Shown here: positions 6,057-64,000 of the stretch, piece after piece
Position numbering within the stretch: position 1 is the first letter of the stretch
Layout of the letters: every line of letters begins with the position of its first letter
From: an uncultured Candidatus Saccharibacteria bacterium
GTDB lineage: Bacteria > Patescibacteriota > Doudnabacteria > UBA920
Assembly: GCA_964416765.1 (NCBI GenBank)
Contig: CAYQEU010000001.1
Coordinates: 617,208 to 681,207, forward strand
Direction: 5' to 3'
Length of the DNA stretch: 64,000 bases
Notes under the pieces: generated by a model
Seen by the model: only the letters and a program-made list of their open reading frames with translations
The model's database searches: none
Told to the model about the DNA's origin: nothing
Translations under genes and position numbers: made by a program

Positions 6057-6197
6057 TGAATGTCAGGTTTTGGAGGGTAAAAATTGAATACGCATATATC
6101 TTTGCTCGCTTGCCCAACTAGAAAGCGTTACCGTCCCACACACTCGGGACAATCCACTTTGGTGAATCGAAGGCACCAAAGAGGAATAGATACAACA

Positions 6198-6238
6198 AAC
6201 CGCCCATGAGACACATTCTCAAGAGGCGGTTTGTTTTT
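6198..6238 (+). terminator. Rho-independent terminator downstream of the ECF sigma gene and sORF
   Basis: Arms aaccgcc/ggcggtt plus inner tgaga/tctca, followed by tgtttttgg. Confidence 0.7.
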
Positions 6239-6249
6239 GGTTGAACTAC

Positions 6250-6579
6250 TTATCTATTGGAGTTGGTGGAGTTGGCCGGTGGTACGGCTTGTGTCGCGCC
6301 CGGGGCGGATTTCGCTGCGCCCTGCATCATGAGAGGGTAAGGCATTGGCTCAGGGGCATAATAGCCCCGTCCGTAACCGCCCATCATCATGCCATGGCGG
6401 CCATAGTCGGAACCAAATTCACCCTTGAACTCACCGATCTTCAAACCTATTAAGAACACTATAGCCAAAATGGCCAGCCCTAGGAGGAGCCGGATTGCCA
6501 TAAAACGACCATGACCATGGCCGTAACCACAGCACTGGTGCCATTTGTCGTTTTCATTATGTTCGTGGTTGTCTTCCAT
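6250..6579 (-). CDS. Small His/Gly- and Met-rich single-TM protein (possible metal-binding membrane protein)
   Basis: N-terminal HEHNENDKWHQCCGYGHGHG, one TM helix (AIRLLLGLAILAIVFLIGL), C-terminal HGMMMGGYGRGYY..MPYPLMMQG Met-rich motifs. Confidence 0.5.
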   Translation of the reverse strand: MEDNHEHNENDKWHQCCGYGHGHGRFMAIRLLLGLAILAIVFLIGLKIGEFKGEFGSDYGRHGMMMGGYGRGYYAPEPMPYPLMMQGAAKSAPGATQAVPPANSTNSNR

Positions 6580-6646
6580 ATGTTTGTTTAATTATTATGG
6601 ATCTTTACTTAATTGTAGCACTTTCTTCATGAAGCAATGATGAAGG

Positions 6647-7675
6647 CTAAACCGGCAGGATATCCATTTCCGGCTCGTATTTACCCAATTGGGCCAGGCT
6701 GTTCATATGGCAGCGGTGCAGAAAAACCTTTTGCGCGGCAGCAACTTTGCTGGCATCCCCTGCCCATGTGTGAAGCTCGGAATTTTGCAAAGCCCTCCCA
6801 TAGGAGTAAGTCAGATGCCATGGGTAATTTTTCCCCAAGCGCTGGATTAGGTTTAAACGCAGGGTCGCCTGCTCTTCACTCTGCCCACCGGACAGGAAGA
6901 CAATTCCACCCACCTCTGGCGGGACAACCGCCAACAATTCATTAGCGGTTGCTTCCGCAATCTCTTCGGAAGTGGATTGGATAGGATGCTGGAGACCAGC
7001 GCAAATCATGTTAGGCTTCAACAGAATTCCTTCTAGCAAAACGCCCTTTTCCTTGAGCTTCGCGAAAACGGTTTTATGAGCCTGCATAGTCACTTCCTCA
7101 CATCGGTCAATGCTATTATCTCCATCCATTAAGACTTCGGGTTCAACTATCGGCACGATCCCGACAGCCTGACACATTAAGGCATATTCGGCGAGACGCT
7201 CCGCATTTTCATCGAGGCACGCCTGGGTGGGAATGTCCTTGCCAATGGTAATAACAGCTCGCCACTTCGCGAAGCGGGCTCCCATCTCGTAATATTCCGC
7301 CAAACGCTTTGGCAGGCCTTCCAGCCCTTCAGTGACTTTTTCTTCTGGTGATTCCGGCATCGCGACCGGGCCTTCATCTACCTTAATTCCAGGGATAATG
7401 CCCTGCTCAGAAAGAAGCACGGGAAAGGGCTTGCCGGAATCTGCTTTCTGGCGAATTGTTTCATCGAACATGATGACCCCGCTAATGTACTGGTTTATCC
7501 CTTCGGTAGTAAACATGAGCTGGCGATAGAGCCTGTGGTTCTCATGGGTATCGTCTATACCCATGGCGGCAAATTTCTTGCCAATATTGCTGTAGCTTTC
7601 ATCGGCAGCCAAAATACCCTTGCCCGGCGCCACCAGGGCCTGGGCGATCTTCTTTAAGTCTTCTGCGTGGTCCAT
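6647..7675 (-). CDS. fba: Class I (Schiff-base) fructose-1,6-bisphosphate aldolase
   Basis: ILAADES signature near the N-terminus. Full-length class I aldolase pattern (LLKPNM..., IVFLSGGQS, YSYGRALQ). Confidence 0.9.
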   Translation of the reverse strand: MDHAEDLKKIAQALVAPGKGILAADESYSNIGKKFAAMGIDDTHENHRLYRQLMFTTEGINQYISGVIMFDETIRQKADSGKPFPVLLSEQGIIPGIKVDEGPVAMPESPEEKVTEGLEGLPKRLAEYYEMGARFAKWRAVITIGKDIPTQACLDENAERLAEYALMCQAVGIVPIVEPEVLMDGDNSIDRCEEVTMQAHKTVFAKLKEKGVLLEGILLKPNMICAGLQHPIQSTSEEIAEATANELLAVVPPEVGGIVFLSGGQSEEQATLRLNLIQRLGKNYPWHLTYSYGRALQNSELHTWAGDASKVAAAQKVFLHRCHMNSLAQLGKYEPEMDILPV

Positions 7676-7737
7676 TTGTTTCTGTTTCCTTTAGATAATG
7701 TTTTCTTAATCTTAGCATAAAAAACCCGGCTCAGGGC

Positions 7738-7765
7738 TTGACAAGATATAAGGATATGCTAATAT
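7738..7765 (+). promoter_or_regulatory. Sigma-70-type promoter for the ArsR-family gene. The predicted TSS coincides with the ATG, giving a leaderless mRNA.
   Basis: TTGACA (7738-7743), 16-nt spacer, TAATAT (7760-7765). ATG at 7772 lies 7 nt downstream of the -10. Confidence 0.5.
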
Positions 7766-7771
7766 ATTTAT

Positions 7772-8050
7772 ATGACAGACTTATGCGATGAAATTGAGAA
7801 ATTTGGCAAGGGCATTGGCAACGCGTCACGGTACCGCATTGTTGAAGCCCTTATCCCCGGCCGCAAAACCGTGGGCGAGCTCGTGAGGATAGTCAAACTT
7901 TCCCAGCCAGCAGTATCCCAGCATTTAAAGGTGCTAAAGGCCTGTAATTTGGTTGTTGACGAACGACGCGGGCAAGAAGTCTTTTACGCCGTTAATACTG
8001 AGCATACGCTGAGTCTACTCAAAAACTTAGTTAAAGATTTAAAGAAATAG
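7772..8050 (+). CDS. ArsR/SmtB-family metalloregulatory transcriptional repressor
   Basis: Winged HTH ELVRIVKLSQPAVSQHLKVLKACNLV. 92 aa. Confidence 0.85.
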   Translation: MTDLCDEIEKFGKGIGNASRYRIVEALIPGRKTVGELVRIVKLSQPAVSQHLKVLKACNLVVDERRGQEVFYAVNTEHTLSLLKNLVKDLKK

Positions 8051-8059
8051 GAGTAACCA

Positions 8060-8665
8060 ATGGAATACAATACCATACCTTCGGATGAAACCATCCGCAC
8101 TGTTGTTGCATCCCTGAAAGAAAACGGGATGGACGCCATAGTAGTTGAAAATGGCGCGGAAGCCAAAACGAAAGTTTTGGAAATGCTGCCGGAAGGCGCG
8201 GAAGTCATGAACATGACTTCCATCACCCTGACCACTACTGGTCTTGAGTCGGAAATACTGGAATCCGCAAAATTTAAGCCAGTTCGTTCAGTACTGAATG
8301 ATGAGAACGCGGAACCACGCTTAAAGCGGCAGTTGGGCGCCGGCCCTGACTACACAGTAGGGAGCGTTCACGCTCTGACCGAAAAAGGCCAGGCTGTAAT
8401 CGCATCCAATACCGGCAGTCAGCTCCCCGCTTACGCGTACGGAGCCGGGCAGGTTATTTGGGTGGTAGGAGCGCAAAAAATCGTGTCCGACCTGGATGGC
8501 GCAATGAAACGAATTTATGAACATGTCCTCCCTCTCGAATCGGAACGAGCCCATAAAGCTTATGGAGTGGAGGGAAGCAATGTTTCAAAATTGCTGATAG
8601 TGAACAAGGAGGTTAACCCGGAACGGATCAAAATAGTTATCGTAAAAGAAGTTCTAGGTTTCTAA
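8060..8665 (+). CDS. LUD-domain protein (LutC / YkgG-like, DUF162)
   Basis: Length and motifs (ASNTGSQ...VVGAQKIV) fit the LUD domain. AGGAG SD upstream. Confidence 0.55.
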   Translation: MEYNTIPSDETIRTVVASLKENGMDAIVVENGAEAKTKVLEMLPEGAEVMNMTSITLTTTGLESEILESAKFKPVRSVLNDENAEPRLKRQLGAGPDYTVGSVHALTEKGQAVIASNTGSQLPAYAYGAGQVIWVVGAQKIVSDLDGAMKRIYEHVLPLESERAHKAYGVEGSNVSKLLIVNKEVNPERIKIVIVKEVLGF

Positions 8666-8684
8666 TTTCCCTTAAAAAGACAAA

Positions 8685-8715
8685 AAGACGCTGGCTGTAG
8701 GGCTGGCGTCTTTTT
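8685..8715. terminator. Bidirectional hairpin terminator between convergent genes
   Basis: aagacgc/gcgtctt stem followed by ttttt. Confidence 0.5.
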
Positions 8716-8740
8716 GGTTAAAATTGTTTGGTTAGGCTCG

Positions 8741-9151
8741 CTAAGTGATGACACACATGGGAACATGCGTGATATCGAAGCCATTTTCGGCAAACAGCTC
8801 GTCTTTCATTAGCGTTGCCGCGTATTGATCCGAGCTACCGGCGAAAAAATTAGGCTGGAGCGCGGCGCACTTCTGTTTGACCTCGTTGGTCACGCAAAAC
8901 TTCAAGTGCAACCCCGGTCGGGTTTGGGCTTGAAGCAGACGGCAAACCTCCTCTATTCCCGCGATGAGCGTTTCCGCGCTATCCGAATGAAAAGGGAACT
9001 TGAAGAGGTCAACGATGACCGTATCGAAGTCCGTGTTCGCGCTAATGTCCTCCAGGATTGCTGGAAGCAAACCCTTGGTAAATTGGTCAATGACCAATAC
9101 GAGTGCCCCGTTTTCGGTACGGAGCAGACCGTAACCTGTTAATTTATGCAT
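8741..9151 (-). CDS. Hypothetical protein
   Basis: 136-aa ORF convergent with the LUD gene. No recognisable motif. Confidence 0.4.
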   Translation of the reverse strand: MHKLTGYGLLRTENGALVLVIDQFTKGLLPAILEDISANTDFDTVIVDLFKFPFHSDSAETLIAGIEEVCRLLQAQTRPGLHLKFCVTNEVKQKCAALQPNFFAGSSDQYAATLMKDELFAENGFDITHVPMCVIT

Positions 9152-9225
9152 ACTTCTCCTTCTAATTTTCTGTTTGTCTTCGTTTTAAACTTTTTCAACC
9201 CCTACTTAATAGAGGATTATAATCA

Positions 9226-9254
9226 AATTAAAACAGGCTGGCAAGGCCAGCCTG
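9226..9254 (-). terminator. Rho-independent terminator after mntH
   Basis: Perfect inverted repeat caggctggc-aag-gccagcctg preceded by an A-run on + strand, which is a T-run on the minus strand. Confidence 0.6.
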
Positions 9255-9269
9255 AGGACAGATTAGTAA

Positions 9270-10634
9270 CTAAAGCCAGATGGAAGCTATAGCCGCGACG
9301 GCTGATATAGCCATAACCCCAACCACTCCCCAACCGATACCGGTAACGAGCGGACGATTGGCATGCCGTCCCATAATTTTTTTATTACCACTAAGCTGTA
9401 CAATAAAGACCAACACAACGGGTGCGACTATTCCATTCGCAACAGCTGAATAAATCAAGGCACGAATAGGGTCTAAGCCAACGAAGTTCATTAAAAAACC
9501 CACCAGCATGGCAATGATGATTACGCCGTAAAAGGCGTGGGCATTTTTTAGTTTGCGGTAGAGCCCAAACGGCCACTTAAAGCTTTCCGCCATGGCATAC
9601 GCCCCGGAACCGGCTAGGACAGGAACTGCTAAAAACCCCGTGCCTATTATCCCCAAAGCAAACAAAGTGTATGCCGCCTCGCCGGCGATAGGACGAAGTG
9701 CCGATGCGGCATCAGCGGCCGTGTTGATTACCGTACCACTGGCAAAAAGTGTTCCCCCACACGCCACTATAATAAAGAACATAATCACATTGGAAAGCAA
9801 CATTCCCGAAATCACGTCTATCCTCATCTGCTTGATCTGCTTGGATTGCGGAGGAGTAGGTACGTGCTGTTGTTTGTGCAAAATTTCTTCTTCTACTTCC
9901 TGGGAAGTCTGCCAAAAGAACAGGTATGGCGAAATAGTAGTACCCAGGATGGCACAAATAATAAGAATTTGTTCGCGGCTGCCATCCAGATGCGGGATTA
10001 AAGTACTTTTTATGATATGACCCCAGTCCAGGCCGTTAATGCTGAGGGCAGCAAAGACGTATAATAGCAAAATGAGCGCCAAATATTTCAGGTAATGAGC
10101 GTACCTTTCGTAGGTTGTAAAAATTTGAAGGGCCAAGCTAAGCAGTGTAAACAAAACCAAAAGCACGGTAAAGTTAGCCGATGGTACAATCAGCTGGAAG
10201 CCCTGCGCCATGGCACCCAAATCAGCCCCCAAGTTAAAAATATTGGCTACCAACAATAAAATAGTACAGGCGACCAAAATTCTCCGGGAATAATGTTCCC
10301 TGATGTTGGCGGCCAGCCCCTTACCGGTTACCAGGCCAATCCGCGCGCACATTTCCTGTACCAAGGACATAAGCGGTAAGGTGAACAAGGACAACCATAA
10401 TAGGCTGAATCCATACTGAGCGCCGGTTTGGGAATAGGTGGCAATTCCAGAAGGATCATCATCCGCCGCGCCCGTAGTAAGACCGGGGCCTAAGATATGC
10501 CAAAATGACTGGGCGCGCTTGAGAGGTTTTTTGGTAATAACCTTGCCTGCGACTTTGCCGCCTTGCTCAACAATTTCATCGAGGGCCTGAGCGGGGGCTT
10601 CCGCGATGCGTTTTACGATGTCTTTTTCTTTCAT
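9270..10634 (-). CDS. mntH: NRAMP-family divalent metal (Mn2+/Fe2+) transporter
   Basis: 454 aa, ~11 TM helices. NRAMP motif DDDPSGIATYSQTGAQYGFSLLW (DPGN-like). Confidence 0.9.
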   Translation of the reverse strand: MKEKDIVKRIAEAPAQALDEIVEQGGKVAGKVITKKPLKRAQSFWHILGPGLTTGAADDDPSGIATYSQTGAQYGFSLLWLSLFTLPLMSLVQEMCARIGLVTGKGLAANIREHYSRRILVACTILLLVANIFNLGADLGAMAQGFQLIVPSANFTVLLVLFTLLSLALQIFTTYERYAHYLKYLALILLLYVFAALSINGLDWGHIIKSTLIPHLDGSREQILIICAILGTTISPYLFFWQTSQEVEEEILHKQQHVPTPPQSKQIKQMRIDVISGMLLSNVIMFFIIVACGGTLFASGTVINTAADAASALRPIAGEAAYTLFALGIIGTGFLAVPVLAGSGAYAMAESFKWPFGLYRKLKNAHAFYGVIIIAMLVGFLMNFVGLDPIRALIYSAVANGIVAPVVLVFIVQLSGNKKIMGRHANRPLVTGIGWGVVGVMAISAVAAIASIWL

Positions 10635-13302: not shown

Positions 13303-13803
13303 ATGCCAAAGCCGCTATCACAATTTTCTTTGGTCATCCTTCGGGCGTTAAACAAACAAAAACGCCTGGCTTTTGATGAAATTAAGCGATTATACGACAA
13401 AACAGAGGATCCCAAACGAATATCAGCTACCCTCTACCGCTTGGAAAAACAGGAGCTAATGGTACGGAGTGGAAACATGGTCAATATCACCGAAGAAGGC
13501 GAAAGAGTTATCCACAATTATTTCCCAGAAAAGGATGGGATATGGAAACTCATAATTTTTGATATTCCCGAATCGGAACGATACGTACGCAATGTACTGC
13601 GTTCCAAGCTCCAGGCGCTTGGGTTCAAAAAGTGGCAGAACAGCATCTGGGCTTCCCCTTACGCGCTCGACCCCGAATTGGAAAAGGAGTTAAAGATCCT
13701 GGCCGCTAAGTACTTTGTGCGGTTAATCAAAACCACGGATATAAACGAAACTTCTGACCTGGAAGCTTTATTTTCTGACCAAATTGACAGCTCAGGCCGC
13801 TAG
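13303..13803 (+). CDS. PaaX-family-like transcriptional regulator (winged HTH plus PaaX C-terminal-like domain)
   Basis: C-terminal pattern GIWKLIIFDIPESERYVRNVLRSKLQALGFKKWQNSIWASPY fits the PaaX_C consensus (W..W.L..FD.P...R..LR..L...GF...Q.S.W..P). wHTH-like N-terminus. Confidence 0.55.
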   Translation: MPKPLSQFSLVILRALNKQKRLAFDEIKRLYDKTEDPKRISATLYRLEKQELMVRSGNMVNITEEGERVIHNYFPEKDGIWKLIIFDIPESERYVRNVLRSKLQALGFKKWQNSIWASPYALDPELEKELKILAAKYFVRLIKTTDINETSDLEALFSDQIDSSGR

Positions 13804-13837
13804 GCCTACAATGAACTTACCAATTAAATATTAATAC

Positions 13838-13935
13838 TTATTTAGGGAAGTCCGGTGTAATTCCGGCACTGTGCCGCAACTGTGACTGGCGCTGTTATAC
13901 AGCAAGCCAGAAGTCAGATCGCTAAATAAGCGTAA
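13838..13935 (+). promoter_or_regulatory. Candidate cobalamin (B12) riboswitch aptamer, short form
   Basis: AGGGAAGTCCGGTGTAATTCCGGCACTGTGCCGCAACTGTGA matches the B12-element core GGGAA..GGTG..AATCC....C.G..CCGC.ACTGT. Downstream ..AAGCCAGAAGTCAGATCGC is a divergent B12-box-like element (AAGCCAGGAGACCTGCC). Nested helices ctggc/gccag and gctgt/acagc. Confidence 0.45.
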
Positions 13936-13967
13936 TTCCCGAGCAGGATTTAAATCTTAATTTTTAA

Positions 13968-13992
13968 ACACCGCCCGGAGCGGTGATTTTTT
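13968..13992 (+). terminator. Intrinsic terminator / expression platform ending immediately before the ATG at 13993
   Basis: caccgc-ccgga-gcggtg hairpin followed by attttttat, then ATG. Confidence 0.6.
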
Positions 13993-15852
13993 ATGTCTGA
14001 AAGCGTAGATGATATCGAAATAGACGAAGAAGGCTTAGGCAGTGTTGAAGCTGTCGAGGAAGTCTTTGCGGAATTAGAGGCAGAATCGGAGCGCCACGCC
14101 CGTACAGTTGAGCAATATGAAGAGACTTCCCCGGAAACTGGAATGGACAGCAACTACGGCTCCTACGACCGGGAAACTGGTTCCATATATTTGGACGGCG
14201 TGGAACTGCAGGGCAGCGATGACAAGATTGAAGGGATCAAAGAAAAATTCAAAGAAGGATTCGAGGGTTTGGCAGACTGGTCGGAAGGAGAATGGAACGG
14301 TATTACCTATCGCACAGACTACCATATTGAAGGAAGCACACTTCGGTTGGACACCTATGTTATAGAAGTGAATGAACCCGGGGATTTGGATTCGGGCATT
14401 GAGTCCGACACCGGCAGCGAGGGCGGTGACGAAGACGAGCCAATAGCCGCTTCGAATATTTTGGACACAGAAAGGTCTATTGAAGAGGGCCAAGAGCTGG
14501 TTCACCAGGAGGAACAAGCGTTGGTCGAATCGGTACAAGAAGTGACAGCCTGGTCCAGCTGGTTGGAAGACCCGGGAGAAAGAATAGATGCGCGAACAGA
14601 AACCACAGAAGTTGCCCAAACCGAAAATCCACTAATAATAGAGCGTCCAATATTTGCCTTTGATAATCTGCTTAATGTGGAAGATGGAGGTACCGTTCCG
14701 GCAGAAAGAGTCGGTTCAGCCGACGAGAGTACGGCTGAGATAACAGACCAACCCGAACAGCAGCCCGCTGAGAGATCCGAAACAAATGAGGAAATTTCTG
14801 CCGAACTCAGCCTGCAGACTAACCATGAGAATGCTGAAAGCACCATTGAATCCACAACCGGAAGTACAGGCGCCGGCACTAAACCTGAAACATATAAGGA
14901 AATTCAGATTGAAGACTCTCATAGCTCGGTGGACGGGGCCCCGCAAGAGATGGATAACACTCGTTCCCCGATTAGCCTGAGACGCGAGAATGGCAGACAT
15001 GCTAAAGAACCAGCGCCCGCAGAAGCACGAGCAGTGGAAGCGCTGACGCAGGAAGTGCTGCCGGCAAAAAGTGCATTAGAGTTATCAAGAAAGCCCGACA
15101 CCAAAATTGTGGAGACGGAAAGCGCCCGGGCGGAAACTAAAAATTTAATATTTGAAACAGATTCCCCCATAGAGCAGGAAGACAATGCCGAGTTTGCCCG
15201 GACAGTCCAGCCCATTACTCTTACACGGAATATCAAACGGGGAGTAAAAGTTTCCCGGACCGAGGACATTCACACAACTGATTTTTCATTGGGGAATAAT
15301 CCTGAGCCGCAGGAAATAGCTGTTGAGCTAGCAGAAACTACAGAAACACCTGAAGAGGTTTCCGCTGAAACAGCAGTGATAGAAATTAATGAAATTACTG
15401 CAACTGAGGCGATAAGGATTGAACCAGCGCATCTAGAGAATCAGGAACCAACTATCCAAGAAGCCGCTGAATCGGTTCAAATAGAAGCGCGCACGGAGCA
15501 AATGGAAGCTAGGGAAACCATCCAAAAAACGACAAGCCAGGTTGAGAAAAAAATTACGGAAGTCCGTCGGGAAATCCGCCTGGTAAAAGCCGAAACCAAA
15601 AAAATAGAACAAGTAGCAAGAGAAAGAACCCAGGCCGAAAGAATTTACGAACCGATACGGGAAATCCGCCGGGTTATAATCAACGGTCCCCGCTTGGAAA
15701 CTGGTGGCATTATCCTGCGACGAAACCGGTCCGTCATTAGCACTGAAGAACGTGATCGCCTAGAAAATACTAATCGCATCGTGGAAATCCCCCGTTATAA
15801 TTCTCGCCGCCGGACGCCAACCCGGTCTGCCGCCATTAGACTAGCAGCTTAA
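13993..15852 (+). CDS. Hyper-acidic Glu/Thr/Ser-rich low-complexity (likely disordered) protein, 619 aa
   Basis: Longest ORF in a region full of antisense shadow ORFs. Strongly biased acidic composition. Basic C-terminus (RRNRSVISTEERDRLENTNRIVEIPRYNSRRRTPTRS). Stop lies 7 nt before the Clp-like gene. Confidence 0.55.
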   Translation: MSESVDDIEIDEEGLGSVEAVEEVFAELEAESERHARTVEQYEETSPETGMDSNYGSYDRETGSIYLDGVELQGSDDKIEGIKEKFKEGFEGLADWSEGEWNGITYRTDYHIEGSTLRLDTYVIEVNEPGDLDSGIESDTGSEGGDEDEPIAASNILDTERSIEEGQELVHQEEQALVESVQEVTAWSSWLEDPGERIDARTETTEVAQTENPLIIERPIFAFDNLLNVEDGGTVPAERVGSADESTAEITDQPEQQPAERSETNEEISAELSLQTNHENAESTIESTTGSTGAGTKPETYKEIQIEDSHSSVDGAPQEMDNTRSPISLRRENGRHAKEPAPAEARAVEALTQEVLPAKSALELSRKPDTKIVETESARAETKNLIFETDSPIEQEDNAEFARTVQPITLTRNIKRGVKVSRTEDIHTTDFSLGNNPEPQEIAVELAETTETPEEVSAETAVIEINEITATEAIRIEPAHLENQEPTIQEAAESVQIEARTEQMEARETIQKTTSQVEKKITEVRREIRLVKAETKKIEQVARERTQAERIYEPIREIRRVIINGPRLETGGIILRRNRSVISTEERDRLENTNRIVEIPRYNSRRRTPTRSAAIRLAA

Positions 15853-15858
15853 TAACAC

Positions 15859-17532
15859 ATGTCGACCGCTGAATTTAATAAAATTTCATATTTAGACTTG
15901 AAGTGGGAAGCCCGTAACCAACGGTTGCCCACCGTCATAGGCCGTCGGGAGGAAATAGCCCGCCTTAACCGCACTCTGCTGCGTACTACCACTAGCAGCT
16001 GTTTTGTGGTGGGAAAAACCGGGGTTGGGTCTACTACTTTCCTTCGTGGATGGGCCGGACAAGCCAACGACCTTCCGGTATTCAAAAATTATCGGATTGT
16101 GGAGCTTGGTTCGGAAAATTTTCATCATATTAACAGCGCGGGGACAGGATTTTCTTCCAAGTATGTTGAAGCTTTAGCCAGCATCCCCGCGCCTTCCATA
16201 ATAATAATGGATGGCTTTGGTTCTATCGTATACAACAAACCAGGACTGCTCCAAGCCATGACACGTTTACTGAGGCCGCTGGCTGAACACCCGCAAAATC
16301 GATTGGTTCTGGGAATGGAACCCCATGAGCATACATGGCTCTCAGATCAGGACCCAGGGTTTTGCCGGCTTTTTGAAACACTCTTTTTAAAAACCCAACC
16401 ATCGGAAGAATTGGAACAGATCCTAATCGAGGCGGGGTTGAAGCTCCAAAAGGAACGCAATGTTACCATCGCTCCTGATCTGCCGCGGCAAACTATTGCA
16501 TTGTGCCAGCGTTTTACCAGCCTGGGACAGCTGCCCGCGGCCGCGATACAGGTTCTGGATGAATCAATTGCCGAGAGCTTGGGGCAGGGCCACACTCAAG
16601 TTGGTTTGAAGGACGTCCAGCGGGTTGTCGCCGACAAAACGGGCGTTCCATTTTCCCAGCTGGCATCAAGTGAAACAGAACTACTGAAGAAATTGCTTCC
16701 CGAACTCCGCAAACAAATCGTGGGGCAGGACGAAGCACTGACTACAATTACCAATTTCATCCAGCGCGCCAAGCTAGGTCTTAAAAACCCGCACCGTCCT
16801 CTCGGTTCTTTCCTGGTACTGGGGCCCAGCGGCGTGGGCAAAACTGAAACTGCCAAAGCGCTTTCCAAGATCCTATATGGCAAGAATGAAAGTTTCCTGA
16901 GGATCGACATGTCGGAGTTTAACGAAGCCAACACTCTCCCACGGTTGCTCGGCGCCCCTCCCGGTTACGTGGGATATGAAGCAGGCGGCACCCTGACCAA
17001 CCATATTTCCGGCGAACCGCACAGCCTGATTTTGATGGACGAAATTGAAAAAGCCCACCCGAAAATTTTCGATGTATTCCTGCAAATTCTGGACGATGGA
17101 CGAGTTACATCAGGGCAAGGCCAGACGGTGGACATGACACAGACCGTGATAATCGCCACCTCCAACATTGCCGTAGATAAAATTATCGAACCGAAAAATC
17201 TCGATATTCAAAGCCCGGCGTTTTTGCGGGATGAAATACTTCCAGAACTTCAAAAACATTTTCGCACTGAATTTATCAACCGGTTTGACTCTATTGTTAT
17301 CTTTAACCCGCTTTCCACGGCTGACCTGCTCGATATCGCTATTTTGGAAATTGAGAAAATAGAAGAACGGGTGCGCGACCGGGAGCTAAGCTTTGACATT
17401 GACCGCAAAATTCTAGAAGAAAAGATCCAGGAGATTATTGATCCCCGCTTGGGAGCAAGGCCTATAAAAAGGTATGTCGAAAATACTTGTGAAACTTTAA
17501 TTGCAGAATCTCTGCTGGAGGAACAATCATGA
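15859..17532 (+). CDS. Clp/Hsp100-family two-domain AAA+ ATPase with degenerate D1 and no N or middle domain
   Basis: D2 is canonical: VGQDEAL, Walker A LGPSGVGKTE, Walker B LILMDEIEKAHPKIFDVFLQILDDGRVT. D1 P-loop reads VVGKTGVGSTT (Lys replaced) and Walker B IIIMDGF. 557 aa versus ~860 for ClpB. Confidence 0.8.
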   Translation: MSTAEFNKISYLDLKWEARNQRLPTVIGRREEIARLNRTLLRTTTSSCFVVGKTGVGSTTFLRGWAGQANDLPVFKNYRIVELGSENFHHINSAGTGFSSKYVEALASIPAPSIIIMDGFGSIVYNKPGLLQAMTRLLRPLAEHPQNRLVLGMEPHEHTWLSDQDPGFCRLFETLFLKTQPSEELEQILIEAGLKLQKERNVTIAPDLPRQTIALCQRFTSLGQLPAAAIQVLDESIAESLGQGHTQVGLKDVQRVVADKTGVPFSQLASSETELLKKLLPELRKQIVGQDEALTTITNFIQRAKLGLKNPHRPLGSFLVLGPSGVGKTETAKALSKILYGKNESFLRIDMSEFNEANTLPRLLGAPPGYVGYEAGGTLTNHISGEPHSLILMDEIEKAHPKIFDVFLQILDDGRVTSGQGQTVDMTQTVIIATSNIAVDKIIEPKNLDIQSPAFLRDEILPELQKHFRTEFINRFDSIVIFNPLSTADLLDIAILEIEKIEERVRDRELSFDIDRKILEEKIQEIIDPRLGARPIKRYVENTCETLIAESLLEEQS

Positions 17533-17831
17533 CAGAAAAATTGAAACCCATGGAAGCCGGTGCGGAAAGCAAAGCTATTGAGATAAAGCACAACGAAACA
17601 TCTCTGACTCCCCAAAACGCCCGGCAAATGTTTGAACAACGATTGGCCCAAACTGAGGCCATGCACCCCTTTGTGTCCCTTAAATTTTTCTATCAGGTAA
17701 AAGAAAAGATTATTCGTGAACAGGGCATGGCAAAAAAACTATTGAAGATTGAAGAAGAAAAACAGGAAAGATTGGACCAATTCAGTTTTGTGCTTAACCC
17801 CAGTTATTTTGAACAGAAACTAATATCCTAA
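17529..17831 (+). CDS. Hypothetical protein translationally coupled to the Clp-like gene (ATGA overlap)
   Basis: 100-aa ORF, 4-nt overlap with the upstream stop. Confidence 0.45.
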   Translation: MTEKLKPMEAGAESKAIEIKHNETSLTPQNARQMFEQRLAQTEAMHPFVSLKFFYQVKEKIIREQGMAKKLLKIEEEKQERLDQFSFVLNPSYFEQKLIS

Positions 17832-17832
17832 T

Positions 17833-19116
17833 ATGCCACAAGTTATCCTGGGCACAAATATATACCGGGGCAAGTCTACCCCCATCGCCTTCCAACAACA
17901 GGACCGGTTTCGGCACATGTACATGATTGGGAAAACGGGCGTGGGCAAATCCACGGTTTATGAAAACATGGCGCTGCAAGACATCCACAACGGCAACGGC
18001 GTTTGTTTTATTGACCCGCACGGTGAATCCATTGACTGGCTCCTGGACCGTATTCCGGCAAATCGCCTGGAAGATGTTATTTTGTTTGACCCGTCTGACC
18101 CCGCTTTCCCATTAGGCCTGAACTTGCTCGAAGCCCAAAACGAACAAGAACGCAATTTTTTGGTCAGCGAGCTGATCGAAATATTTTACAAACTATTCGA
18201 CCCCGACCGGACCGGTATTATCGGGCCACAGTTTGAACATTGGCTCCGCAACGCCGCGCTTACGGTAATGTCCGGGACGGAAGGCGGCAGTCTCATTGAA
18301 ATACCAAAGTTATTCGTTGATAAAAAGTACGAAGCGCAAAAACGAAAATCCCTGAAAGACCCCATTGTCCAGGAGTTTTGGAGCAAACAGATGAGCAACA
18401 CCGCTGAGTTTCATAAGTCAGAAATGCTGAACTATTTTTCTTCCAAATTTGGCTCGTTCCTCAACAATGGATTAATGCGTAACATCATTGGGCAAAGGCG
18501 TAGTTCTTTCTCATTTGAAAACGTTATTGCCCAGGAAAAGATTTTACTGGTTAACCTCTCAAAAGGGAAAATTGGCGAAATGAATGCCGCGATGCTTGGT
18601 TTGATTCTTATCGCAAAACTAGAGACCGCAGTTTTGAAACGCGCCGGAATTGCCCCGGACCGACGACACCCATTTTACCTCTACGTGGATGAGTTCCAGA
18701 ATATCACCACTTCTTCATTCGGCACCATGCTTTCTGAGGCTCGTAAATACGGACTGGGCATCCATCTGACCAACCAATATTTTTCCCAACTACAGGAGGA
18801 GATGCGAAATGCAATCCTCGGAAACGTGGGGACACTATTGGCTTTCGAAGTCAGCGCGGAAGACGCGGAAATCTTGGAAAAAGAGTTTGCCCCCTTTACC
18901 AGAGAGGACTTCTTTAACCTTCAAAAATATAACTTTTACATTCGCCTAATGATAGCCGGGAAGATGAGCACCGCTTTTTCCGGAGTTAGCCTGCCGCCTG
19001 CCGGGTATCCCAACCATGACATGGCCGAAAAAATAAAAACCCTTGGGCACCTGGCTTATGGTTACCCAAGGGTACTGGTCGAAGAACAAATCAAACAGGC
19101 GTTGTTTGCTACGTAA
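17833..19116 (+). CDS. Soluble TraG/TraD/VirD4-like (type IV coupling protein family) P-loop NTPase
   Basis: Walker A IGKTGVGKST, DPHGE, Walker B LYVDEFQN. TraG-D_C-like block RKYGLGIHLTNQYFSQLQEEMRNAILGNVGTLLAFEVSAEDAEILEKEF. No TM segment. Confidence 0.65.
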   Translation: MPQVILGTNIYRGKSTPIAFQQQDRFRHMYMIGKTGVGKSTVYENMALQDIHNGNGVCFIDPHGESIDWLLDRIPANRLEDVILFDPSDPAFPLGLNLLEAQNEQERNFLVSELIEIFYKLFDPDRTGIIGPQFEHWLRNAALTVMSGTEGGSLIEIPKLFVDKKYEAQKRKSLKDPIVQEFWSKQMSNTAEFHKSEMLNYFSSKFGSFLNNGLMRNIIGQRRSSFSFENVIAQEKILLVNLSKGKIGEMNAAMLGLILIAKLETAVLKRAGIAPDRRHPFYLYVDEFQNITTSSFGTMLSEARKYGLGIHLTNQYFSQLQEEMRNAILGNVGTLLAFEVSAEDAEILEKEFAPFTREDFFNLQKYNFYIRLMIAGKMSTAFSGVSLPPAGYPNHDMAEKIKTLGHLAYGYPRVLVEEQIKQALFAT

Positions 19117-20362: not shown

Positions 20363-20437
20363 TCGGGAGTAGCTCAGTGGTAGAGCTATCGGCTGTTAAC
20401 CGATCGGTCGTGGGTTCGAATCCCACCTCCCGAGCCA
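20363..20437 (+). tRNA. tRNA-Asn (anticodon GTT), CCA encoded
   Basis: Cloverleaf: acceptor tcgggag/ctcccga, D-arm gctc-agtggta-gagc, anticodon arm atcgg-ctGTTaa-ccgat, T-arm with GGTTCGAATCC, 3' GCCA. Confidence 0.9.
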
Positions 20438-39359: not shown

Positions 39360-42300
39360 TTATTGGTTGATTTGAATGTCGGCCGCTGGACCCAGGCCGA
39401 AGTCGGCTGGACTTTCCAGCGAAGTAATTACCGTCGGATCGGCATGGAATGTGCCAACCCCAACTACCCGGGCAAAGTACACGACGCGCATGGCGCTTGC
39501 CGCAGGACACTTCGGACTCACCGATGTCCCAATAGTAAACTTGATCTTACGTCCATCGACAATGTCAGGATAATTGAATAGCGGATTACATGGATCCTGG
39601 TTTCCTGGAATATACGTATTCTGGATGTCAAAGTAATACGTTGGAGTTATCGGCATCAGCCCAGCTGGGGTTACATCAGTAAGGGTAAATACTTTACTGA
39701 TCCCAACCGCGGTCTTGGGCTGGACTGAAATGGAAACTTTTACCAGATCGCCGTCCTTAAAGGTATTGGTGGTTTTACCATTAACCGAATACGTCCTTTG
39801 GATTGGAATGTTTAAGGTTGGTTTAGTTGAACTGTCAGCCGGTCCTTCATACCAGGTCAGCAACTGCAAGTCCCCGCTTACACCGCTGAATTCCAGTGAA
39901 GACAACTCGCTCGAAAGCAGTTCAAGGTTAAACCGGTTGCCGTTCTTTAATTCAACCGTACCGCTCCGCTGGTTGGTCTTGTAGCTGAATTTCCCGTTCT
40001 CGTGAGGGGCATAAGACAGCGCGGATTTGATAATGAAAGCTTCTTCCAGCGCCGCGGTGTCTTTTTTAGGCTCATGGGAATTGAGATATTCCACAATCTG
40101 GTCGCGGTCTGTGGGGTAGTTAAGCTGGGCCGCGAGCATGCCAGCCAAAGCGGTCAGCTTGCTCTGGCGGGTTTCATCTGGATCGGCAATATAGAGCTGG
40201 CCGTTATCGGCAGTCAATTTTGGCTTAACCTGTTCACTGTAAATTTTGCGCGCGCTTTCCTTGTCGCCGATTACGCCCAAAGCGTTAGCCACGAACATCT
40301 TGTCTTCCAAATCCAATGCCGGTTCGTCTTTAAAGAGCTGGAGTTTGTTAAGGACCGGTTCTTTGTAAGCCGCGAGTCCCAACAATGCTTGTGATATGCG
40401 GTGAGCATCCGCTTTCTGGTCTTTCAGTGATTTATTGAAGTAGAAAACCATGTCGGACTTTGGCAAGCTCTCCGGCACCAAAGCGGCGCCCAAAGCAGAG
40501 ACTTTCAGGTCACTGCTACTGTAAGGGAACAGGCTCATGCCCACCGGGTCAACCCGGTTATCGTCGGTTTTAACCTGGAATATGGAAGCGTCGAAATGAG
40601 GAGCATCACCCGGCATGCCAAATTGGTCATGCAAGACAGACTGCGCGTAAAAACTGGCCGCGCGTTGGTCAAACCTGGTTCCACCCTGCCACGCCAGCCA
40701 GCTGGCGGCACGGAACTGGGAACCTCGCCCTTTATCAGTGACTACAACCTGTGTTAAGCCATTAGCGTTTCCTGGAACGTTCTTGGTATCACCATTTAGG
40801 GTAGATGCGGAAGTCTTCGGGACTGATAAAGCCGAATCCAATACGGTCACGTTACGCTGTAAGTCATCGCTTAGGTTTCCCTGCTGGACTTTTACTTCCA
40901 CGGGATATACACCACTGGAAAGTTTACCTACCGGGACATAGGTAGTATTGCCTTTTATGTCCTGCTCATACTTCAGGTTAATCTGTGGAGCGGATACGGT
41001 AACATGGGCGGGCTTGTTTGGGTCATAGTCTCGCCCGAACACGCGCACGCGGAATTGGGGCTGGTCGCCCTTGTTGTAAGTCTGACCCAAGGTTACATCG
41101 GCAAACAGGGGCAAGCTGGTTGAGATATGGGATAGGGAGTCGCCCGCTTTGATGGCTTTCGGATCGAATGCCTCAGTTGTAATGCGCCAAGAAGTTAAGT
41201 TGTCCGGCAGCTTAAAGCTAAAGCTGGCCTGGCCTCCGCTCAAGTCAGCGCTGCGCGCCAACACGGTGTCCTGGAACTTCACGCGCGGGGTGCCCGCACC
41301 GCCGCCTCCACCACCGCCATCACCATTTCGCCCAGCATACTGGGTTAGTGATACGGCAGGGGTTTCGGTAACGTCTTTGTACAGGTCCACGAGAGTGTTC
41401 GCCGACGGTTCGTACCCGTTCGCGTCGAACACCGCCTGGTCGACCACGTACATATGCACAGTACCGGACGCCGATTTGTTGGAAGCGTCGGTCGCTTTAA
41501 CGGTTGCGTTAACGGTTTCGCCGGGGCGGTACTGGTCCTTATCGGTTTTCACTTCAACCTTCAGCTGCTGGGGCTTGATGTCCTGGGAAACAAACACGCT
41601 GTTTGTTTCTTCAAAACCAACTGGACCCAACACCACCGCCCGGTAGGCAATCCCCGGGCTCATTGGCTGGGAGAAAGTATCGCCGAAAGTCAGCGAGTCG
41701 GAGCTCGATGCTTTGAGGATGTCACGCTGGTACGCGTAGTACAAAATTTTCGTCGGTTTAGATTTGGTTGCGCGCTCCTGGTTGCCAAAAGTAACATTCA
41801 TTTGGAAGTTGTCGCCAACGTTAACCGGGCGCGGGTTGTCCCCTCCGGACAAGGTCAGGGTTGGCTGCAGGCCATATGGATCGGGGTTTCCGCCATTGTA
41901 GAAGCTGGTACCAGCTGAAGTGTAGTAACCCAGGGCGCGGGCAATCTTGCCATCGCCATCGGCCGCTTCCAGCAACAGGGAATAACTGACATTCTCCTCA
42001 ACGGGATATTTCTTGTCGAATTTCCACTGGCCGCCTTTATCGGTACTGCCTGAGAACGTTTCTATGATCTGGTCGGACTTGTCATAAGTGAAAACCGGAC
42101 GGGTGACCTTGTCTATATAATCATAGTATTCACCGGTCTGGCGCGGGGTATAAGTAGTTTTCTTTACGGATACGGTAACCTTTTGATTAACCGCGGGCGG
42201 TGCCTGCTGGTAAACCGGGTCACGGTAGCTATCCGTGTTTTGCTCAAATAAGTTAGTGCTTAATGCACGAGCCGTTACCGTGTAATGGTTGGTTCCTTCC

Positions 42301-53818: not shown

Positions 53819-53908
53819 TGGCGGAGAAGGGGGGATTCGAACCCCCGAACCCTTTGACAGGTTACTCGCTTTCCAAGCGAGCGCACTAGACCACTATGCG
53901 ACCTCTCC
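53819..53908 (-). tRNA. tRNA-Ser (anticodon GGA), long variable arm, CCA encoded
   Basis: Reverse complement GGAGAGGTCGCATAGTGGTCTAGTGCGCTCGCTTGGAAAGCGAG..GGGGGTTCGAATCCCCCTTCTCCGCCA. Anticodon loop ttGGAaa. Confidence 0.85.
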
Positions 53909-62631: not shown

Positions 62632-62638
62632 CCATAAA

Positions 62639-62751
62639 TGGGCGACTACCTACTTTTCCACCCGCATGCACGGGAGTATCATCGGCACAAGCACGTTTTA
62701 CTTCTGAGTTCGGGAAGGGATCAGGTAGGACCGCGCCGTAAATGCCACCCA
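62639..62751 (-). rRNA. rrf: 5S ribosomal RNA
   Basis: Reverse complement matches 5S conserved blocks (..TTACTTCTGAGTTCGG.AGGGATCAGGTAGGACCGCGCC..). Helix I closes with G-U pairs. Ends are approximate. Confidence 0.8.
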
Positions 62752-62977
62752 AATCTTACCGGGAATTACTTCCCCGCAAAATCCGGGCGACATTAAGTCA
62801 CTAGGGCTTAATGTAAGCTACTAAACCGTTGCTGAGGACAAAGAATACCGCGCCAAGCGCGAGTATCGACAGAGTCACGGCAACGATTGTTACACGTCGT
62901 TTTAACATTGTACAAGAACAAATTAGTTTTAAATAAAACTAGAAAAGATAATCCTAAAAGGAAAATCAAAACTTTCG

Positions 62978-64000
<1,023 letters not shown>

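Follow-up and report, generated by a model that had tools for sequence, protein, structure and literature searches.

A cobalamin riboswitch in front of an operon of Clp-like and TraD-like ATPases in Patescibacteria

The DNA considered here (the window, 64,000 nucleotides of contig CAYQEU010000001.1 from an uncultured member of the Patescibacteria) carries a cobalamin (vitamin B12) riboswitch directly in front of an operon of four genes at 13993-19116 (+). These genes, hereafter the cassette, encode a large acidic protein, an ATPase of the Clp/Hsp100 type, a small protein, and a soluble ATPase resembling the type IV coupling proteins TrwB, VirD4, and TraD. They follow one another with overlaps or gaps of a few bases, and the next gene is convergent. 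A reading based on the sequence alone had proposed a cobalamin-riboswitch-like element in front of a non-canonical target. Both parts of that proposal were borne out, and the same arrangement was found at every related locus that could be evaluated.

The riboswitch and its leader

When the whole window was searched with Rfam cmscan, the adenosylcobalamin (AdoCbl) riboswitch family RF01482 matched at 13818-13965 (+) with 61.4 bits, above its gathering score of 50 (E = 7.6e-9). The alignment is full-length (model positions 1-149 of 149), and no second cobalamin riboswitch was returned by cmscan in the 64 kb. Against our own covariance model R1, built from 20 related copies, the window riboswitch scores 112 bits. 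The conserved core of B12 riboswitches, AGGGAAGTCCGGTGTAATTCCGGCACTGTGCCGCAACTGTGA, is present at 13844-13885; the segment described earlier as B12-box-like, GCCAGAAGTCAG, lies at 13906-13917, with the box proper, AAGTCAGATCGC, at 13911-13922. The GGGAA junction, the GGUG..AAUYCC segment of L4, GCCGC-ACUGU, and the AGUCAG of the B12 box all align with the model consensus at high posterior probability, and the core motifs are invariant or nearly so among the 20 copies. The RNA itself is an ordinary member of a known riboswitch family.

The alignment to RF01482 places, on the + strand, the outer stem at 13837-13845 and 13922-13930, P4 at 13850-13867, P5 at 13870-13878 with its L5 loop GCC at 13873-13875, a short P6 at 13880-13917, and the B12 box at 13911-13922. 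The 3' regulatory hairpin P13 (UCC-CGAGCA-GGA), the partner of L5, follows at 13937-13948 (+). With the outer stem and P13 the element spans about 112 nt rather than the roughly 100 nt first estimated, and about 175 nt with leader and terminator included. The suggestion of a class-II-like minimal aptamer was reasonable: there is no large P6 extension, RF01482 is the best-matching family, and orthologous leaders elsewhere score with RF01689 (AdoCbl-II). The accompanying suggestion of a degenerate or repurposed element finds no support, since core, kissing-loop partner, and terminator are all intact and conserved. Like other members of the Cobalamin clan (CL00101, with RF01482 and RF01689), the RNA combines a four-way junction, a B12 box, an L5-L13 kissing loop, and an intrinsic terminator as its platform. 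Unlike the clan generally, P13 is almost invariant in the lineage of the window, lies at least 20 nt upstream of the terminator, and contains no ribosome-binding site.

Base pairing was assessed in an alignment of 28 related copies fitted to the model. Standard pairs occupy 90.6% of the pair cells, versus 65.1% in shuffled alignments and 36-44% when partners were slid; both-sided changes occur in 25 of the 30 pairs, covariation is present in all riboswitch helices, and none of 500 shuffles matched any of these measures. The sequence-only reading had named a sub-threshold Rfam score without covariation as evidence against a riboswitch; the opposite was found on both counts, with a score above the curated threshold and compensatory changes in the helices.

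The proposed kissing pairs are G13873:C13944, C13874:G13943, and C13875:G13941, with A13942 bulged. Among the RF01482-type copies the P13 hairpin is invariant or compensated: L5 GCC goes with L13 CGAGCA in 18 copies, and L5 ACC with CGAGUA in three (loci L010, L012, and L015), so that the same pair is GC 18 times and AU 3 times. In RF01689-type leaders, read by eye outside the alignment, L5 is CGC and the P13 loop CGCGCCA contains GCG. Complementarity is thus kept in three combinations, GCC/G-GC, ACC/G-GU, and CGC/GCG, the third by eye, and these compensatory changes support the predicted L5-L13 kissing loop.

A putative sigma-70-like promoter, TTGACA-17 nt-TACAAT, was found by consensus scan at 13784-13812 (+) with 11 of 12 matches, and transcription likely starts at about 13819. 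Pairs of TTGACA...TAnAAT are seen by eye at the same place in L039, L009, L006, L019, and L029. At the other end of the leader, the terminator scan returned an intrinsic terminator on the + strand with a 6-bp stem, five pairs of which are G-C (CACCGC-CCGGA-GCGGTG, 13969-13985), followed by an A and six U at 13987-13992. The ATG follows at 13993, so that the terminator hairpin does abut the start codon as first noticed. In 26 of 31 leaders the terminator finder located a G+C-rich hairpin and U-run in the interval from P13 to the start codon, which in most loci is 0-30 nt past the terminator. In the window the U-run stops one base short of the ATG, and no second promoter could fit between terminator and start codon. 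Nor is there a Shine-Dalgarno sequence in this place, which is normal here because most genes of the window lack one as well (for example those starting at 15859, 17833, 11503, and 51431). Several start codons in the window stand directly after A/U-rich stretches, and translation initiation in this organism seems to proceed largely without Shine-Dalgarno pairing.

Upstream, a PaaX_M/Cas2-like gene (13303-13803, +) ends 15 nt before the riboswitch match, and the promoter-like site overlaps its last codons. A gene of this type also lies no more than about 1.2 kb upstream of the riboswitch in 9 related loci (L003, L006, L009, L013, L028-L030, L039, and others), a position that may be plain synteny among close relatives.

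The four genes behind the riboswitch

The first gene (13993-15852, +) encodes a 619-aa acidic protein with an isoelectric point (pI) of 4.4 and 23% Asp+Glu; most of its sequence is of low complexity, and much of it has a disordered look. It has no match in Pfam, NCBIfam, or PADLOC; a homologue search returned only the protein itself and one relative at 58%, and a profile of its N-terminal domain matched nothing in 5.8 billion proteins. Because homologues are so few, no alignment was deep enough for structure prediction. A counterpart nevertheless occupies the same position in all related loci, with 237-1021 aa and a pI of 4.1-6.3. These proteins evolve fast and have in common a weakly conserved N-terminal domain of about 80 aa (G.E....G..W....H.EML..W..G...F.LPDY.E..GE.L.VT.L....G.V.YEI), as well as short C-terminal motifs and the ending ...N-G-I-T/S-L/M-R-R/K-A-A in about 25 of 31 loci. 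An analogy of the ...RxAA tail with the ssrA tag was considered and is unsupported; transfer-messenger RNA genes for a comparison of tags were not found in 50 loci.

The second gene (15859-17532, +) encodes a 557-aa AAA+ ATPase of the Clp/Hsp100 type (Pfam AAA_2, 184.6 bits, and ClpB_D2-small). Like the class-1 proteins ClpB, ClpA, ClpC, and ClpV, it has a two-ring architecture and a D2-small domain, and its D2 is about 50% identical to that of ClpB. By contrast with ClpB, ClpA, and ClpC, it lacks the N-domain, the M-domain coiled coil, and the ClpP-docking loop, as is apparent from alignments to Thermus ClpB (1qvr) and Bacillus ClpC (3j3t). The alignment with 1qvr begins at ClpB residue 158 and skips residues from about 396 to 495 (557 aa against 854 aa); a gap of six residues falls exactly at ...KYVGFNV... 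of ClpC, and the IGF/VGF tripeptide of the ClpP loop is absent from the orthologues. Walker A, Walker B, and the GYVG pore loop of D2 are conserved in 32 of 32 orthologues. In D1, Walker B has D[N/D/G] in place of DE, the glutamate being missing in all 32, and in the window Walker A reads GST instead of GKT, a loss of the lysine confined to the lineage of the window. The protein therefore reads as a two-module Hsp100 with a degenerate D1 in which D2 alone should be catalytically intact. All of its NCBIfam scores are far under the equivalog cut-offs (ClpB: 382.7 bits, cut-off 1232).

The third gene (17529-17831, +) encodes a 100-aa protein that ends in ...SFVLNPSYFEQKLIS and has no family match in Pfam or NCBIfam. 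A small open reading frame (ORF) with a C-terminal [YF]F-x-EQ-[EK] precedes both soluble and membrane-anchored TraD-like genes in most loci. The last gene (17833-19116, +) encodes a soluble P-loop ATPase of 427 aa, similar to TrwB, VirD4, and TraD, with Pfam matches to TrwB_AAD_bind (40 bits, cut-off 20.5) and TraG-D_C (31.8 bits, cut-off 22) and a weak NCBIfam match to the DNA importer CedD. A search of its sequence against the PDB gave no match. Its AlphaFold2 model (predicted local distance difference test, pLDDT, 85; predicted template-modelling score, pTM, 0.87) finds TrwBdeltaN70, HerA, Cag-beta, DotL, and VirB4 as its best PDB matches, with template-modelling (TM) scores of 0.5-0.65, and superposes on TrwBdeltaN70 over its whole length (TM 0.57-0.61, E = 1.7e-9). 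Since HerA and VirB4 score nearly as well, its placement within the superfamily is loose.

The fourth protein shares a nucleotide-binding domain and an all-alpha domain with the type IV coupling proteins (TrwB, VirD4/Cag-beta, TraD, and DotL) and with HerA/FtsK. Unlike the coupling proteins, it has no N-terminal anchor, starting directly at the nucleotide-binding domain (residues from about 354 to 780 of its 782-aa membrane-anchored relatives), and it is always paired with a protein of about 100 aa and, in the clade of the window, with an Hsp100-like ATPase. No relaxase or type IV secretion system (T4SS) gene lies beside it in the window, L205, or L207; only L206 has a TrbL_3 neighbour.

The description of the first downstream genes as an acidic low-complexity protein followed by ATPases is accurate, and the target can rightly be called non-canonical, with no B12 synthesis, transport, or B12-independent isozyme family matched by any of the four proteins in Pfam, NCBIfam, or PADLOC and a pairing with the riboswitch that is not a one-off. 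In this the operon differs from the usual targets of clan CL00101, which reflect a habit of the family and not a requirement. A defence role was also considered and set aside: PADLOC gave generic AAA+ and HerA-like matches only, and no system.

Linkage across Patescibacteria and predicted regulation

The contig of the window is also present, in identical form, in public metagenome assemblies. For comparison, 80 species-representative loci were fetched through the TraD-like protein, from metagenome-assembled genomes labelled Doudnabacteria, Kaiserbacteria, Paceibacterota, and other Patescibacteria. A ClpB-like gene lies just upstream of the TraD-like gene in all 31 loci with at least 60% identity and in none of the more distant ones; TraD-like genes with at most 53% identity, lacking the ClpB-like neighbour, had no riboswitch. 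Searched with R1, the 27 loci that include enough upstream DNA gave 26 riboswitch matches, each in + orientation and 0.8-3 kb before the ClpB-like gene; seven of these 26 matches lie outside the training set of R1. At the 27th locus, L017, which both R1 and Rfam missed, an RF01689-type copy with an insertion in L4 can be read by eye, and the miss is a failure of detection, not an exception. The leaders of L016, L025, and L026 score above gathering with RF01689, and that of L024 scores as RF01482.

The link was then used as a prediction for three further loci (L205-L207) picked solely through TraD-like homologues named Magasanikbacteria, Falkowbacteria, and Parcubacteria. All three carry a large acidic protein without a Pfam match, followed by the ClpB-like gene, the small protein, and the TraD-like gene, and in each a cobalamin riboswitch occupies the intergenic stretch directly in front of the first gene (84-90 bits with R1; that of L206 also matches Rfam RF01689 at 52.7 bits). 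The riboswitch thus stands directly upstream of the cassette in 31 of 31 evaluable loci (the window, the 27, and these three) from several groups of Patescibacteria. The link persists although the aptamer subtype varies between loci, RF01482 in some and RF01689 in others. Because the flanking genes differ among the four loci annotated with Pfam, the cassette and its leader behave as a self-contained unit.

Some variation among the copies may be recorded here, with examples at L016 3318-3382, L023, L025-L027, L010 5509-5626, and L017 6120-6260. In the RF01689-type leaders, P6 is reduced to a 3-bp stem with a 6-nt loop (CCG-UAUAGU-CGG). Extra hairpins are inserted in L4 of several copies of both types (L005, L007, L013, L019, L017, L021, and L205), and such copies escape or nearly escape the Rfam models (L017 no match, L021 24 bits). 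In the Falkowbacteria-like locus L206, a TrbL_3 (VirB6-like) gene is divergent from the cassette, and downstream a bAvd-like gene beside a 2419-aa ORF hints at a diversity-generating retroelement (L206 357-2783 (-) and 9378-17042 (-)).

The cobalamin riboswitches characterised so far are known as OFF switches in cis, and the OFF direction proposed for this leader rests partly on their example. The leader is very probably a functional B12 OFF switch that controls the operon at 13993-19116. In the mechanism proposed, transcription would start at the consensus-matched promoter just upstream of the riboswitch. With cobalamin bound, L5 (GCC) would kiss the P13 loop (CGAGCA) and P13 would stay closed; the terminator hairpin could then form, and transcription would stop one base before the ATG, leaving the operon off. 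Without B12, the CCCGAG of P13 would be free to bind the terminator's 5' arm and loop, and this antiterminator would allow RNA polymerase to read into the four genes. Ligand binding, the OFF direction, and the antiterminator pairing are what we infer from the leader. We hold with high confidence that the cassette belongs to the B12-starvation regulon of organisms that would be B12-auxotrophic and AdoCbl-dependent.

The antiterminator is moderately supported by sequence comparison. CCCGAG in P13 can base-pair with the 5' arm and loop of the terminator hairpin, and that part of the terminator has an exact CUCGGG in L005, L007, L205, L206, and L207. Measured against 500 mononucleotide shuffles, the P13 12-mer pairs better with the real 5' arm and loop (mean z -1.50, p<0.05 in 11 of 26 loci, Fisher p = 2e-9). 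When the terminator 5' arm was allowed to pair anywhere in the 75 nt upstream, P13 was its best partner in 15 of 24 loci. The minimum-free-energy fold of the window shows a different pairing, in which L5/P5 (GCCGC) joins the 3' arm of the terminator; inspection by eye showed it in no more than about 5 of 21 loci, and it was rejected as a general feature.

Several points weigh against the proposed OFF switch or against its details. The significant P13 test used mononucleotide shuffles on loci that are not phylogenetically independent, and the broader test of the arm against any of the 75 nt upstream, with dinucleotide shuffles, was non-significant (Fisher p = 0.31). The window's own match between P13 and terminator has one mismatch, and our finder detected no clear terminator in five RF01689-type leaders. 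Fitting the covariation alignment to the model favours the structure, and the leader sequence does not discriminate between AdoCbl, methylcobalamin (MeCbl), and hydroxocobalamin (HyCbl) as the ligand. The four proteins show no likeness to any known B12 enzyme, binder, or transporter; the differing flanks mean that the neighbourhood gives no functional pointer, and genes for DUF4430, a transcobalamin-like domain, adjoin the cassette in only two loci, L014 and L017.

That the element is instead a decaying relic or an ON switch is very improbable. In its favour, the window holds no recognisable B12 gene in its 64 kb, and the direction of regulation is itself deduced. Against it, compensatory changes preserve the core and the kissing loop, orthologous operons retain one or the other of two aptamer subtypes, and the complementarity of P13 to the terminator fits OFF logic, the direction in which characterised cobalamin riboswitches work in cis. 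Non-canonical outputs do exist in this family: Listeria Rli55 and AspocR and Enterococcus EutX are cobalamin riboswitches with a trans-acting or antisense RNA as output. The leader of the window resembles them in having a non-canonical output and differs in that its terminator runs up to the start codon of an operon of protein genes, which makes ordinary attenuation in cis the simplest reading. A stand-alone trans-acting small RNA with an independently transcribed operon is likewise very improbable: the strong terminator right after the aptamer must let a terminated RNA of about 175 nt accumulate with B12, but a U-run ending one base before the ATG, with start codons within 0-30 nt in most loci, leaves no space for a separate promoter, and the same operon follows in 31 of 31 loci.

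Other genes behind the aptamer and possible roles of the cassette

The same aptamer subtype is found in front of other genes. Metagenome contigs were scanned with a pattern drawn from the RNA only, L5 and P13 included (GTGCCGCAACNGTRA, 40-70 nt, CCCGAGCAGGA), and at least 120 stretches matched. Among the matches listed, the first downstream gene could be read in 72 loci: it encodes a small membrane-anchored DUF4430 protein in 33, DUF4430 proteins of a second cluster in 2, DUF6580 proteins in 2, proteins of 250-710 aa from at least nine families without Pfam match in about 25, and the acidic protein of a cassette in one (L086, with the same N-terminus as L205). The families without a Pfam or NCBIfam match, at least nine and unrelated, stand behind the riboswitch in L092, L095, L098, L099, L101, L104, L112, L114, and L120; further loci with such a first gene are L122, L128, L129, L131, L149, L153, L159, L160, and L161, and several of the proteins end in paired CxxC motifs. 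Together these first genes appear to form a pool of unexplained B12-regulated genes in Patescibacteria.

DUF4430 being a transcobalamin-like domain, its genes plausibly encode B12 binders, and DUF6580, judged from its neighbourhood only, is a putative uptake partner. The survey leads to the conclusion that organisms with this aptamer subtype depend on imported cobalamin, and that they also place the riboswitch before DUF4430 genes and their DUF6580 neighbours. The aptamer subtype at the DUF4430/DUF6580 loci of the same lineages is identical to that of the window, the difference being that the window operon carries neither domain. In the Berkelbacteria locus L032, a cobalamin riboswitch at 17320-17457 (-), with CCC as its L5 loop, precedes DUF4430 and DUF6580 genes in what is the canonical arrangement, and a membrane-anchored TraD-like gene lies about 9 kb from it.

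A second operon design emerged from the same scan, consisting of the riboswitch, a large protein without family, a small protein, and a membrane-anchored TraD-like ATPase of 782 aa (L159 757-6477, L101 3965-10105, L114, and L131); five loci, four of them independent, have this design. Among the matches listed, a TraD-like gene lies downstream in 5 of the 20 riboswitch loci with at least 4 kb of downstream DNA, 4 of them independent, the conclusion being that TraD-like ATPases came under the B12 switch more than once. In L159 the riboswitch-controlled operon includes DUF4430 and DUF6580 genes and finishes with the small protein and the anchored ATPase; in L101, genes for the adenosyltransferase PduO, DUF4430, and DUF6580 are immediately upstream of the operon. 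Membrane-anchored TraD-like relatives, 820-850 aa in length, occur widely among Patescibacteria; at the two loci with identified flanks they lie between cysS and dnaX without a riboswitch.

The gene for the AdoCbl-dependent ribonucleotide reductase NrdJ (TIGR02504, 528 bits versus a cut-off of 400) neighbours the riboswitch locus L129, where the riboswitch, a gene for a 532-aa protein without family, NrdR, and NrdJ follow each other on one strand (oriented, 6125-9819). If they were co-transcribed, a B12 OFF switch would precede a B12-dependent enzyme, which would be a paradox; a separate promoter for the enzyme is likely.

What the cassette does under B12 starvation can be framed only tentatively. 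As a working guess, possible at best, it may be an ATP-driven machine that processes or translocates a client, with the acidic protein as the client or as an adaptor recognised through its C-terminal ...RxAA tail. Put more broadly, and with the same reserve, Patescibacteria might use B12 to govern an unrecognised machine for handling macromolecules, composed of an acidic client or effector with a C-terminal tag, an Hsp100 with a dead D1, a small regulator, and a translocase without an anchor, which B12 starvation would turn on for scavenging from the host or for bypassing AdoCbl-dependent synthesis of DNA precursors. If true, this would add a new functional class to the B12 regulon and offer a handle on the physiology of episymbionts.

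A more conventional proposal, to which we give rather less credence, is that the cassette takes part in the acquisition of cobalamin, its ATPases powering or aiding the import or capture of B12, or of a macromolecule that carries it, in concert with DUF4430 and DUF6580 proteins encoded elsewhere in the genome. Repression of uptake genes is the standard logic of B12 regulons, and the survey of the aptamer subtype lends the proposal some support, through the gene orders of L159 and L101 and the recurrence of TraD-like genes downstream of the riboswitch; two DUF4430 genes also stand directly after the cassette in L017, and one stands before the riboswitch in L014. By contrast, signal peptides, membrane segments, and known B12-binding domains are lacking in all the cassette proteins, the TraD-like protein of the window has no membrane anchor, and DUF4430 adjacency is limited to 2 of 31 cassette loci. 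Moreover, coupling-protein and Hsp100 ATPases are not known to drive the import of small molecules.

It is less probable again that the cassette bypasses B12-dependent metabolism, NrdJ-bearing organisms switching on, when starved of B12, a DNA or nucleoprotein machine (an FtsK/HerA/TrwB-type translocase with an unfoldase) to obtain or recycle deoxynucleotides. This would parallel the B12 riboswitches that repress B12-independent isozymes; related organisms with the aptamer subtype encode NrdJ, at the score given above, and PduO, and the fourth protein matches the DNA-translocating or coupling folds of TrwB, HerA, and Cag-beta, besides its weak CedD match. An extremely acidic protein could in addition mimic nucleic acid. 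However, genes for a nuclease, a nucleotidase, or competence are missing from the operon, NrdJ genes are absent to a distance of 10 kb from every cassette locus, and the proposal is wholly inferential.

An unlikely reading, ranked below both of these, makes the cassette a module for host interaction or secretion, in which an acidic effector with a C-terminal export signal would be unfolded by the Hsp100 and delivered by the coupling-like ATPase to a type IV-like channel, B12 acting as a proxy for host supply. The tail of the first protein is conserved while the remainder evolves fast, coupling proteins such as VirD4 and TrwB recognise C-terminal substrate signals, L206 has its divergent TrbL_3 gene, and a predicted T4SS was reported as essential in a Saccharibacterium (PMC11665869). 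On the other side, the ATPase lacks a membrane anchor, neither the window nor the other annotated cassette loci contain T4SS genes, and the anchored relatives lie between the housekeeping genes cysS and dnaX and not in T4SS clusters.

A full-text literature search, of partial coverage so that absence is not proof, returned no description of cobalamin riboswitches in Patescibacteria, of this operon, or of a link to Clp-like or TraD-like proteins. The RNA is of a known kind, and what is new is a strictly conserved and unexplained member of its regulon, which makes the finding a worthwhile experimental lead. Because the B12 switch is strictly conserved before them, it tells when the genes of the cassette are needed, namely when cobalamin runs out. 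Such functional information is rare for Patescibacteria, a group with few cultured members and with no function assigned to a large part of its genes. The known B12 regulon would be widened beyond synthesis, transport, and isozyme replacement, and attention is drawn to a family of coupling-protein-like ATPases tied repeatedly, in two operon designs, to B12 control. The leader would also be a natural, compact, ligand-controlled terminator; in a 2024 perspective, riboswitches were named as promising candidates for inducible expression that still need development in these bacteria (PMC11665869).

The remainder of the window contains a 5S rRNA gene (62637-62752, -), the 3' 980 positions of a 23S rRNA gene (62962-64000, -) that runs off the end, and two tRNA genes (20363-20434, +, and 53822-53908, -), the latter of 87 nt with a long extra arm. 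It also encodes a protein of 1710 aa with Big_5 and alpha-2-macroglobulin domains (39360-44492, -), which is unusually large for such a small genome.

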